DNA of 61,843 nucleotides, counting the filler. It is 6 parts of 6 records of this genome, joined end to end, with 100 filler letters (N's around TTAATTAATTAA, not from the genome) between each part and the next. Parts side by side here need not be neighbours in the genome. Positions count along the whole stretch, not along the records: positions 1 to 24,898 come from DRR378314_1871; 5 more parts are not named here. The stretch is one strand, 5' to 3'. Below the pieces are notes generated by a model. The model was not told the origin of the DNA, ran no database searches, and saw only the letters and a program-made list of their open reading frames with translations. The position numbers were made by a program, and so were the translations under genes. Each line of letters starts with the position of its first letter. Within the stretch, counting starts at the first letter, position 1. Of this stretch, positions 1,179 to 3,118 are shown one piece after another.

Positions 1179-1320
1179 GCACCCTAACGTCTGGGGTGTA
1201 TGTTTTGTTGCGTATGGCGGTCAATCGTTTTTCTCGATTGAGAGTAGCCATGGAAGCAACAAAAAAATTAAAAAGCACTCATTGCCTAAGCAATGAAATA
1301 TACGCCCTGTTGAGGGCTGT
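1179..1320 (-). repeat. attC-like recombination site of cassette A
   Basis: Minus strand: acagccctcAAC-agggcgtatatttcattgc ... gcaacaaaacatacaccccagac-GTTagggtgc. Arms 1194-1211 and 1290-1307 pair, and all four mismatches are G.T wobbles on the + (bottom) strand. The spacer next to the AAC/GTT cores is asymmetric. Confidence 0.8.
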
Positions 1321-1364
1321 AACCTCCCGTACTGCGAGTATTATTAATCTTAAATTATAAACCT

Positions 1365-1517
1365 ATGAATAGAATTAAGCTTATAATAAAAAACATACGA
1401 TATCTATGCACTAAAGACTTATCTATGTTAGAATTAAAAAATCAAAAAGTTCCATTAAATTTTAATGGCGAAAGATTAATTGGTATCCTCAGAAGCAAAT
1501 CTAGCGACAACCCTTAA
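1365..1517 (+). CDS. Possible 50-aa small basic protein, convergent with the 75-aa ORF
   Basis: Hand translation gives MNRIKLIIKNIRYLCTKDLSMLELKNQKVPLNFNGERLIGILRSKSSDNP*. A-rich leader (taaattataaacct-ATG) of Bacteroidota type. Below the ORF-track size cutoff. Confidence 0.3.
   Translation: MNRIKLIIKNIRYLCTKDLSMLELKNQKVPLNFNGERLIGILRSKSSDNP
1452..1468 (-). terminator. Weak hairpin plus U-tract after the 75-aa ORF
   Basis: ccattaa/ttaatgg stem, followed on the minus strand by aactttttgattttt. Confidence 0.35.
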
Positions 1518-1703
1518 TAATTCTTCATCCTTAACTTTATTTGCTATGTACAAAATTTCGGCTTCCTTTTCAGGGTCTGATTTTGATATTTCTGCAATAA
1601 TTGCGTGCAACATTCCTTTTATCGCACATTGCGTTTCTATCAATTCAGATAACATATCTGGTAGATTCGTATTGGTAGACTTAAAAATTTCATTTATATC
1701 CAT
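1476..1703 (-). CDS. Small acidic helical hypothetical protein (cassette A)
   Basis: 75-aa ORF with AT-rich leader (ttttataact-ATG), in the same orientation as cassette B. Confidence 0.6.
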   Translation of the reverse strand: MDINEIFKSTNTNLPDMLSELIETQCAIKGMLHAIIAEISKSDPEKEAEILYIANKVKDEELLRVVARFASEDTN

Positions 1704-1721
1704 AGTTATAAAATATTTAGT

Positions 1722-1902
1722 CCTGCTCGTATTTCAGAGCAGGCAAGTGCTTTTTAATTTTAATACACCCCAGACGTTGAGTGCAATTAGATTTAAGGGG
1801 AGAACGGAGGTACGTAGTTCTTTAAATCGTATCCGAAACCATGGCTTGTCGAGACGTCGCAGCGAATTGAGACAAGCCATGGCTGAGGTTATTGCGCTCA
1901 AC
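1722..1902. other. Highly structured non-coding region including an inverted copy of the cassette circle junction
   Basis: Stems: cctgctc/gagcagg (1722-1743); gttgagtgcaat/attgcgctcaac (1776-1787/1891-1902); gatttaa..agaac/gttct..ttaaatc (1790-1828); ccatggcttgtc/gacaagccatgg (1839-1882). 1746-1761 and 1763-1778 are perfect reverse complements of 1264-1279 and 1186-1201. Confidence 0.85.
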
Positions 1903-2050: not shown

Positions 2051-3118
2051 ATGGATTTTTCACAATATACCTTTAAGCCTACCGAGCATCGTAACAAAAA
2101 TGTAATATTGGTGCATTTTCCTTATGATCCCCATTTGGTCCAGCAATTTCGGGAACGTTTTACATCAGCAAAATGGAGTAAAACAAATAAAGCCTGGTAT
2201 TTGCCAGATATACCTGCTGTAAGAACGGCCTTAAAAATAGAGCAGCGACCTTTTATTGCAAAACAACTGACCAAAATTGCACCGGTTAACCAAGCGGCCC
2301 TAATACAGTATTATGATCAACTTAGGTTAAAAGCGCTTAGCCAGAACACCATTCGCATTTATGTAGCAGAATTTGTACACCTACTGCAACTGATTAAAAA
2401 TTATCCCGTAGAAGAGCTTACACCAAAAAGATTAAAGGATTATTTCCTCTATTGTGTGTACCAAGAAGAAATGGGCGAACGTAAAATGAACGGTAAGATA
2501 AACGCTATCAAATTTTATTTTGAAAAAGTACTACATAGGCCACAGCTTTTTTTTGATATTCCAAGGCCTAAAAAACCGGTGACCTTACCTAAAATGCTGG
2601 CCAAGAATGAAGTTGTGAGGTTATTTAAACAGCTTGATAATTTAAAACATCGTATAGCCTTGGAACTTTGTTATGGTCTGGGCCTTAGGGTTTCCGAAGT
2701 CGTAGCTGTCAAAATTAGAGACATTGATAGCGCAAGAATGGTAGTGCATATACATGGGGCAAAAGGTAAGAAAGATAGAATAGTGCCGCTTCCCGTAACC
2801 TTATTGCCAAAACTTAGGGAGTATTACAAGCAATATAGCCCCAAGGAATATTTGCTAGAAGGGAGATATGGGGGGCAATATTCTAAAGGCAGCGTACAGA
2901 AAGTGTTTAAAGTGGCCATGAAAAAAGCAGGTATCAAAAAAAATATCGGGGTACACGGCCTTCGGCACAGTTACGCAACCCATCTCTTGGAATCCGGTAC
3001 CGATATGCGTTTTATCCAAGAACTTTTAGGGCATAGCTCCATTAAGACGACCCAGGTGTACACTAAAGTAACACCGCGTAGTCTTAGAAATATCGAGAGT
3101 CCGTTAGATTCGTTGTAA
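2051..3118 (+). CDS. Tyrosine recombinase, integron-integrase-like
   Basis: Catalytic motifs YGLGLRVSE, KGKKDR, HGLRHSYATHLLE and LLGHSSIKTTQVY. C-terminal SPLD tail as in IntI. SAM-like core-binding region (LSQNTIRIY). Confidence 0.92.
   Translation: MDFSQYTFKPTEHRNKNVILVHFPYDPHLVQQFRERFTSAKWSKTNKAWYLPDIPAVRTALKIEQRPFIAKQLTKIAPVNQAALIQYYDQLRLKALSQNTIRIYVAEFVHLLQLIKNYPVEELTPKRLKDYFLYCVYQEEMGERKMNGKINAIKFYFEKVLHRPQLFFDIPRPKKPVTLPKMLAKNEVVRLFKQLDNLKHRIALELCYGLGLRVSEVVAVKIRDIDSARMVVHIHGAKGKKDRIVPLPVTLLPKLREYYKQYSPKEYLLEGRYGGQYSKGSVQKVFKVAMKKAGIKKNIGVHGLRHSYATHLLESGTDMRFIQELLGHSSIKTTQVYTKVTPRSLRNIESPLDSL

Follow-up and report, generated by a model that had tools for sequence, protein, structure and literature searches.

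Anatomy of Cassette A

The window analyzed here, a stretch of DNA of 61,843 nt, has at its left end the integron-like platform of a marine Arenibacter, with a gene for a Xer-like tyrosine recombinase, an attI-like region, and cassettes that extend leftward on the − strand. The first of these, cassette A, ends in a recombination site of the attC type and carries, in addition, an internal segment (arm 1) that is antisense to its two joined ends. The features of the region, including the open reading frames (ORFs), are as follows:

2051–3118, + strand: Xer-like tyrosine recombinase, 355 aa, with a Phage_integrase domain
1902–2050, no strand assigned: attI-like region, reading ...ACATATATATGT on the − strand, then G(1902)|TT at the crossover
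1188–1901, − strand: cassette A, a two-arm "chassis" cassette of 714 nt with G|TT ends
1891–1902, − strand: R' box with its extension at the cassette start (GTTGAGCGCAAT on the − strand), forming a 12-bp stem with 1776–1787
1788–1890, − strand: leader loop with two stem-loops (1790–1828 and 1839–1882), holding the family-invariant motifs
1776–1787, − strand: R'' part of arm 1 (ATTGCACTCAAC on the − strand)
1763–1775, − strand: L'' part of arm 1 including the spacer, a perfect complement of 1189–1201
1746–1761, − strand: B part of arm 1, a perfect complement of 1264–1279
1722–1743, no strand assigned: hairpin 1, between arm 1 and the cargo (−6.9 kcal/mol, z −5.2)
1476–1703, − strand: cargo ORF for an acidic helical protein of 75 aa, without Pfam or NCBIfam family
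1300–1326, − strand: arm 2, the 5' half of an ordinary attC (R'' with extension 1309–1326, a 1-nt spacer, L'' 1300–1307)
1281–1294, no strand assigned: hairpin 2, small, ahead of B'
1264–1279, − strand: B', 16 nt rich in T, which the ordinary attC fold leaves unpaired and which pairs with the B part of arm 1
1203–1264, no strand assigned: large internal attC hairpin with conserved TTTGTTGC...GCAACAAA, skipped by arm 1
1182–1201, − strand: L' with a 5-nt spacer (1189–1201) and R' box GTTAGGG (1188–1182), crossover at G1188|TT
29–1187, − strand: cassette B, with a 379-aa ORF without Pfam or NCBIfam match

We placed the attI-like crossover at 1901/1902 because the sequence common to 10 related loci, which runs from the recombinase start codon to ...AAC|ACATATATATGTG, ends there; past that point the loci are unrelated. 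This stop of conservation upstream of the recombinase gene backs the ends of cassette A (1188 and 1901/1902). Moreover, identical cassettes found at several array positions terminate exactly at G|TT, and metagenome contigs from three runs diverge at 1185/1186 and at 1899–1902.

Two features by which integron cassettes are recognized are present: G|TT boundaries with an R'' complementary to the first bases of the cassette itself, which are found in cassette B as well, and an imperfect palindrome R''-L''...L'-R' at the cassette 3' end, here at 1182–1326. Within this palindrome, arm 2 is complementary to the cassette start (1308–1326 against 1885–1903, 16 of 19 positions, 84%), is matched by an nhmmer model of 5' half-sites and is kept in all six homologous cassettes (6/6). 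Half-site models of this kind, seeded with a few half-sites, retrieved 41 5' halves and 37 3' halves at E ≤ 10 from the related arrays, all of one attC family; they have RYYYAAC/GTTRRRY boxes and an R'' that complements the first bases of its own cassette, and many pair up as expected. The spacer of the folded site is asymmetric when arm 2 is the partner (1–4 nt versus 5 nt), and there is none with arm 1. Positions 1182–1187 are already part of cassette B, whose R'' (29–38) overlaps the stop codon and is a 10/10 complement of its own first bases (1179–1188); the window begins within the attC of that cassette.

On the − strand, the invariant motifs of the leader are AATAACCTCA (1884–1893), TTTCGGATACG (1828–1838), and CTAATTG (1784–1790), the family-wide set being also given as AATAACCTCA, TTCGGATACG, and CTAATTG. 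Hairpin 1 is followed by a T-run on the + strand and is terminator-like; five of its 7 pairs are changed on both sides among the homologous cassettes, and it is disrupted in one of them (L002). The 75-aa cargo protein has five homologues, with 63–84% identity.

An Antisense Copy of the Joined Cassette Ends

Arm 1 is antisense to the whole attC 3' half (R' and the next 5 bases of the cassette start, spacer, L', and B') except for the self-folded hairpin. When the cassette ends are joined (1891–1901 followed by 1188–1201), 24 of the 25 positions match the reverse complement of 1763–1787; the sole mismatch, at 1782, is a G.T pair on the + strand and is private to the window, because five contigs of three metagenome runs have a C there, which makes their 25-mer perfect. 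Next to this block, 1746–1761 is the exact reverse complement of 1264–1279 (16/16), the hairpin at 1203–1264 being skipped. The region thus holds an adjacent pair of perfect 16-nt inverted repeats (1186–1201/1763–1778 and 1264–1279/1746–1761), which is far beyond chance: none of 300 mononucleotide shuffles of 1–2100 contained a perfect inverted repeat of 16 nt, the longest being 14 nt. Because the ordinary 5' half (1300–1326) is also present, the mirror constitutes a second, alternative partner for the attC 3' half. Beyond the ends of arm 1 there is no similarity (z −1.2 to 0.6).

A wider, decayed inverted duplication was sought past the arms and none was found. Misassembly of the cassette interior was ruled out by a single contig of run X1 that spans 900–1903 without a difference.

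An earlier note on this DNA, made from the letters alone, had described the 25-mer, the 16-mer, and the skipping of the hairpin, and all of these sequence statements hold on recomputation. Its delimitation of the region as a cassette bounded at G|TT agrees with the conservation stop, the duplicated copies, and the divergence of contigs. The ordinary 5' half at 1300–1326 had been overlooked there.

A Family of Two-Arm Cassettes with Selected Pairing

The arm 1 design was found in 12 independent cassettes. Nine of these have homologous modules (the window, L014, L002, L051, L052, L055, L092, L087, and L089) and come from at least six genera and from metagenome contigs, and three are of unrelated sequence and contain no ORF (L009, which shares its cassette with L011, 258 nt; L006, 315 nt; L074, 265 nt). 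In every member (12/12), a junction-spanning block of 23–27 nt and a second block of 10–17 nt pair, and 452 of the 466 aligned positions (97%) are Watson–Crick. The remaining cells comprise 10 that are A.C on the top strand and hence G.T on the bottom strand, none of the opposite kind, and four others. Integrons recombine the folded bottom strand of attC. Because all transition mismatches (10/10) are G.T on the bottom strand, we take the fold of that strand to be the one that matters.

Among six homologous members, two or more Watson–Crick pair types occur at 8 of 12 R positions and at 9 of 10 L positions, and RNAalifold, as an independent check, finds the R stem and hairpin 1, both with compensatory changes. 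The pair counts of the arms were anchored at the crossover, a whole-cassette alignment being unsuited to the purpose (B' was misplaced in two of six rows, and gaps in the L arm were inconsistent). In metagenome contigs L014 and L015, which have the same architecture and a 63%-identical ORF, all three helices differ in sequence yet pair. Taken together, these substitution patterns indicate that the pairing of the arms is under selection, favoring the strand that integrons recombine.

The end modules surround different cargo, namely ORFs of 75, 93, 129, and 163 aa on the top strand, and an ORF of 151 aa or three small ORFs on the bottom strand. The orientation of the modules themselves is uniform (12/12), with the leader motif directly after R' and the large hairpin on the 3' side. 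Arm 1 goes with the end modules rather than with the gene, because homologues of the 75-aa protein also occur within ordinary cassettes from which arm 1 is absent (L016 and L018). In both loci (positions 1350–1984 in L016), the homologue is the second gene of a two-gene cassette, behind a small predicted membrane protein, which hints at a conserved gene pair. In a second Arenibacter (L002), the first cassette has homologous modules around unrelated, reverse-oriented ORFs; this cargo (array coordinates ~590–800) contains extra attC-like half-sites and three reverse-oriented small ORFs, and the cassette may be nested or rearranged.

Members L051, L052, and L055/L056 were added by a motif search followed by the arm test, and a covariance model of the 5' module, with matches in 5 of 151 Flavobacteriaceae genomes, added genomes G007, G017, and G120. 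Applied to 20 hand-picked regions, the arm test was passed by five and failed by 15, the picking having favored G/C-rich R boxes. A pattern search with GTTN{6,7}AATAACCTCA in 401 genomes yielded mostly noise, control counts being close to the real ones, and none of 30 loci fetched automatically from it passed the arm test (0/30). BLAST did not find cassette A in three of three genomes of the same genus, and a search of 1–2100 with Rfam 15 returned two chance-level matches only (20.4 and 15.3 bits, against gathering thresholds of 80 and 57.6).

Multiplication and Changes of Context

Two-arm cassettes are found in several copies and in different surroundings. The most extreme case is genome G120, with eight copies of one cassette of 884–886 nt (L088 and L091–L097), whose flanks differ on both sides in all copies and of which seven differ by at most two positions. 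Contig 14 holds six copies in a span of 27 kb, and the other two are on contig 9 in opposite orientations; the encoded protein, of 129 aa, has a hydrophobic segment and ends in a coiled-coil-like tail. Two copies each of two-arm cassettes were found in G116, L006, and L009. Moreover, a two-arm cassette adjoins attI in 6 of the 21 arrays with a readable first cassette (the window, L002, L006, L009, L011, and L074), a tally that includes related genomes and in which L009 and L011 share one cassette.

Metagenome contigs extend this picture. In run X1, 97% of the query words are found without difference, yet the contigs break at 1898–1903: cassette A is continued by different sequence, and the cassette found ahead of attI is the one that comes first in L001, which suggests that array order differs between strains or populations. 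Across contigs of runs X2–X4, the modules of cassette A have different flanks and enclose different cargo. In X3 and X4, contigs connect 1192–1334 or 1186–1349 to 1716–1803 or 1681–1902 across 316 or 413 unrelated bases; these joins represent the same end modules with a changed cargo. No circle junction turned up among the assembled (Logan) contigs, a kind of data in which none could appear. Such multiplication and changes of context are traits of an active, proliferating element.

The array of L009 (953–6463 of the reverse-complemented upstream region) contains at least five copies of a repeat of ~190–210 nt, 86–91% alike; they are homogeneous long sites of the attC type, like the species-specific repeats of large chromosomal integrons.

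The Recombinase and Two Platform Layouts

The window recombinase is 97% identical to its counterpart in Arenibacter sp. F20364 (L001), and orthologues (E ≤ 1e−80) are present in 11 of 151 sampled Flavobacteriaceae genomes. It scores 193 bits against the integron-integrase model TIGR02249 (cutoff 265), the score being split over two stretches, and 202 bits against the XerA model (cutoff 220). In the comparison with the solved IntI4 structure (2a3v), residues 95–278 align with 17–202 and residues 281–354 with 246–319, so that the alignment flanks the integron-specific insert on both sides and leaves ~43 IntI4 residues unmatched. The closest solved structure is the XerC-like 4a8e. The additional domain specific to IntI, by which integron integrases are recognized, is thus missing from the window recombinase. 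On present sequence comparisons, the platform would work like an integron but with an enzyme that falls outside the definition of an integron integrase. The protein has an extra N-terminal part of ~85 aa without family match, which might, as a matter of speculation, read the leader motifs.

In four genomes (G007:C1, G116:C1, G120:C14, and G207:C8), two-arm arrays lie downstream of, and co-directional with, a recombinase that is 35–44% identical to that of the window, at distances of 1.4 to ~55 kb. One family of two-arm cassettes is therefore common to two platform layouts, divergent and co-directional.

Farther along the window, GC content is 0.37–0.44 over 1–24 kb, 0.53 at ~26 kb, 0.60–0.70 at 30–44 kb, and 0.52–0.60 to the end, and ORFs in 26000–61843 match PrpF, PrpD, TruD, and a VCA0040-like family; this part represents a chimeric assembly or else a large island of foreign DNA.

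Folding Energetics

Folding energies were computed with DNA parameters. The local stems of the window cassette are stable at 1203–1264 (−16.2 kcal/mol, z −6.5), at 1790–1828 (−5.6 kcal/mol, z −3.0), and at 1839–1850/1871–1882, a perfect 12-bp stem (−13.8 kcal/mol, z −4.4), the latter two being closed by an outer stem at 1776–1901 (−26.3 kcal/mol, z −5.3). In six of six cassettes, on both strands, and for linear as well as circular molecules, the minimum free energy (MFE) structure contains the arm 1 helices and buries R'. The bottom-strand MFE lies below the top-strand MFE in all six. Forbidding arm 1 on the bottom strand costs 21.9–44.8 kcal/mol in the circle and 20.0–31.6 kcal/mol in the array context, and most of the folds so constrained have L' paired to arm 2 instead. 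For the six cassettes and both strands, linear and circular MFEs are within 0.3–0.6 kcal/mol of each other, with the same helices. The arm 1 helices need no joining of the ends, because R uses the first 12 bases of the cassette and L and B use the last ones; the arm 1 fold is thus predicted not to be circle-specific.

These results sort out the interpretation that the earlier note had given of cassette A. The two further stems that it drew in the enclosed loop fold as described, and the computed minimum-energy fold does pair its internal copy both with the joined ends and with 1264–1279, around the hairpin, burying R'. The comparison with homologous cassettes that it proposed shows the inverted copy retained with compensatory changes, and such changes across the 12 members dispose of its neutral alternative, a fossil fold-back duplication. 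What remains is a cassette whose pairing forms a selected bottom-strand fold; the idea of a circle-specific switch has to be abandoned, as has that of a design unique to one cassette, and a lock, then the leading idea, has become less likely now that two-arm cassettes are known to be multi-copy and often beside attI.

Possible Functions of the Second Arm

Our favored reading, to which we give about an even chance, is that the bottom strand, when single-stranded, folds so as to clamp the two cassette ends, and that this fold modulates recombination, probably by promoting it. Cassette A would be a member of an integron-type family with a composite site, made of an ordinary attC (1300–1326 plus 1182–1279) and of a second 5' half, arm 1 (1746–1787), which lies upstream of the cargo, after a conserved leader of ~100 nt. 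When the bottom (+) strand is single-stranded, arm 1 would out-compete arm 2 by 20–45 kcal/mol, and its interrupted duplex of ~41 bp would bring the two cassette ends, with their crossover points, next to each other along one unbroken complementary strand. This clamping would occur in the array and in the excised circle alike; in the array, arm 1 would cover L' and B' of the cassette's own attC and also, at the upstream boundary (here attI), the R' box. The observations comprise the anatomy of the cassettes, selected pairing, a bias toward one strand, the folding energies, and multiplication in changing contexts; this reading adds that the fold would act in recombination and in which direction: it may set how the Xer-like recombinase sees the site, with the net effect of promoting excision and re-insertion through a stable, pre-aligned, fully paired R/L site, rather than of locking it. 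We rank promotion above locking because two-arm cassettes look active and proliferating. Alternative folds of attC are reported to alter recombination frequency (PMC6393395).

Several observations weigh against a promoting role. Most cassettes of the same arrays have no arm 1, which is therefore not required for mobility. Classical attC sites need an unpaired spacer and bulges, and the perfect duplex formed by arm 1 has neither, so that its pairing could equally inhibit. The multi-copy state could have other causes, the tally of attI-adjacent cassettes includes related genomes, and a similar strand bias would be expected from a bottom-strand RNA, or if mutation were biased on whichever strand spends more time single-stranded.

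If the pairing does inhibit, it could be an anti-attC lock, in which arm 1 would sequester the L'-R' of its own site and the upstream R' box, thereby blocking the recombinogenic hairpin and leaving the cassette stabilized or gated. The energetic advantage of arm 1 over arm 2 (20–45 kcal/mol) and the missing spacer and bulges of the arm-1-paired form would suit such a lock, and alternative attC folds are reported to reduce recombination in class 1 sites (PMC6393395). On the other hand, eight copies in one genome and two in each of three others, the frequent occupation of the slot next to attI (6/21), and the several metagenome contexts fit poorly with a site locked most of the time; we hold the lock to be unlikely. 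A somewhat smaller likelihood attaches to the proposal that the end modules are an autonomous, ORF-less mobile element, whose site is split around an internal slot, which takes up genes in either orientation and splints its own ends, a proposal made because empty forms of 258–315 nt exist (L009, L006, and L074). It is improbable, in our view, that the pairing operates at the RNA level, in a bottom-strand RNA or as a 5'–3' clamp of the mRNA controlling stability, termination, or translation of the cargo. Hairpin 1 with its T-run (+ strand) and hairpin 2 with the T-rich B' (− strand) do resemble terminators, and an RNA stem would likewise leave G.T pairs biased to one strand, but the favored strand is antisense to the cargo in seven of the nine homologous-module cassettes (the window, L014, L052, L055, L092, L087, and L089, the cargo strand of the last two being read by inspection rather than from an ORF listing) and sense to it in only two (L002 and L051). 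Moreover, all 10 A.C mismatches fall on the fold of the top strand, that of the mRNA, the paired segments are exactly the recombination boxes and stop at the crossover, three members lack any cargo ORF, and no Rfam family matched.

The invariant motifs in the structured loop of ~100 nt, and the multi-copy state of the cassettes, would also be expected of a single-strand origin, priming, or packaging signal that raises the copy number or persistence of the excised circle. Neither a replication protein nor a known origin motif was found, the helices are not specific to the circle, and the parts that pair are the R and L boxes rather than the leader, all of which makes such a signal a very doubtful explanation. 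An equally doubtful one is that arm 1 has no function and is a hitch-hiker, the inverted copy being kept perfect by a templated process such as repair or copying within the folded hairpin: pairing of 97% at high divergence exceeds what purifying selection typically maintains in stems and could be explained by templated correction, but the same design is present in at least four sequence-unrelated subtypes, the arm stops sharply at functional boxes and skips the hairpin, and the mismatches are biased 10 to 0 toward one strand. There is very little to recommend an invertible switch, in which the recombinase would use the arms as double-stranded inverted core sites and invert the leader or the cargo. 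Identical inverted 25-bp sites do lie beside a tyrosine recombinase, and cargo ORFs are found on either strand among the members; against this, all 12 members share one module orientation (12/12), the skipped hairpin suggests a single strand that folds, and no strand-changing joint was seen among the assembled metagenome contigs, which is weak evidence.

Relation to Known Systems

The arrays resemble integrons in lying beside a tyrosine recombinase and in having an attI-like boundary, RYYYAAC/GTTRRRY boxes, and G|TT ends. As in attC, R'' complements the first bases of its own cassette, so that a site is complete only across the circle junction, and there is a signature of bottom-strand folding. 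They differ from integrons in that the window recombinase is without the IntI-specific insert, and two-arm cassettes differ from ordinary attC cassettes in adding a perfectly paired second 5' half upstream of the cargo, behind a conserved leader; arm 1 reaches 12 bases into the cassette start and adds a third helix of 16 nt.

Folding of single-stranded DNA (ssDNA) into recombination substrates has precedents. In CTX-phi attP(+), two inverted sites ~90–100 nt apart fold in ssDNA into a forked hairpin that is recombined by XerCD. The likeness lies in inverted recombinase sites that fold in ssDNA into a substrate of Xer type; in contrast, the central region of the CTX-phi structure is unpaired and belongs to a filamentous phage genome, whereas pairing is perfect here and the carrier is an array cassette. 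In IS200/IS605 elements, an internal guide of 3–4 nt pairs with the element ends in ssDNA and aligns the cleavage points before a HUH transposase excises the element as a circle. Cassette A likewise has an internal sequence that pairs with the element ends and unites two cleavage points, but the enzyme of those elements is a HUH (Y1) transposase and the only recombinase of the window is of the Phage_integrase family; none of the cassette ORFs fits a transposase.

Within the same phylum, the description of rAID-1 from gut Bacteroidales (10.1101/471110) reports a XerD-like recombinase with gene arrays whose repetitive intergenic sequences are "reminiscent of integrons", defined by a recombinase at least 44% identical to the Bacteroides fragilis reference and by co-directional downstream genes of low GC. 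Both systems combine a Xer-like recombinase with arrays of small low-GC genes separated by repeats, and the arrays of G007, G116, G120, and G207 are likewise downstream and co-directional. In contrast, the window array lies upstream of its recombinase and is divergent from it, and the description of rAID-1 consulted gives no site anatomy, crossover point, or two-arm cassettes. The competing attC folds mentioned above (PMC6393395) are akin to ours in that competing single-strand conformations decide whether both recombinase boxes are presented; in that report the competition takes place within a hairpin of ~60 nt, whereas in the two-arm cassettes the rivals are separate 5' halves, hundreds of bases from each other. 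For Bacteroidetes, the IntegronFinder 2.0 paper lists previously only In0 elements, plus one complete integron (Salinibacter) (PMC9024848), and a 2026 paper describes unusual cassettes with attI fragments, of a different design (PMC12901181). In a literature search of incomplete coverage, we found no described cassette with a second antisense arm and no integrons described for Arenibacter, Zobellia, Maribacter, or Tenacibaculum.

The two-arm cassette is a new structural variant of integron-type cassettes, and through it the integron-like arrays of Flavobacteriaceae, so far poorly described, gain a documented site anatomy. In systems that use folded single-stranded sites, the determinants of a cassette's activity are only partly understood. 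Here, one half-site has two alternative partners, an ordinary weak one and a perfect one that spans the junction, and the arrangement is found in cassettes that have multiplied; it offers a mutable system for studying how site folding controls recombination by a Xer-like enzyme without the integron-specific domain. Common end modules around different cargo may also bear on how cassettes acquire genes and, if the modules do form an ORF-less mobile element, they would be a natural cassette-building vector and give a handle on how integron-type cassettes form.

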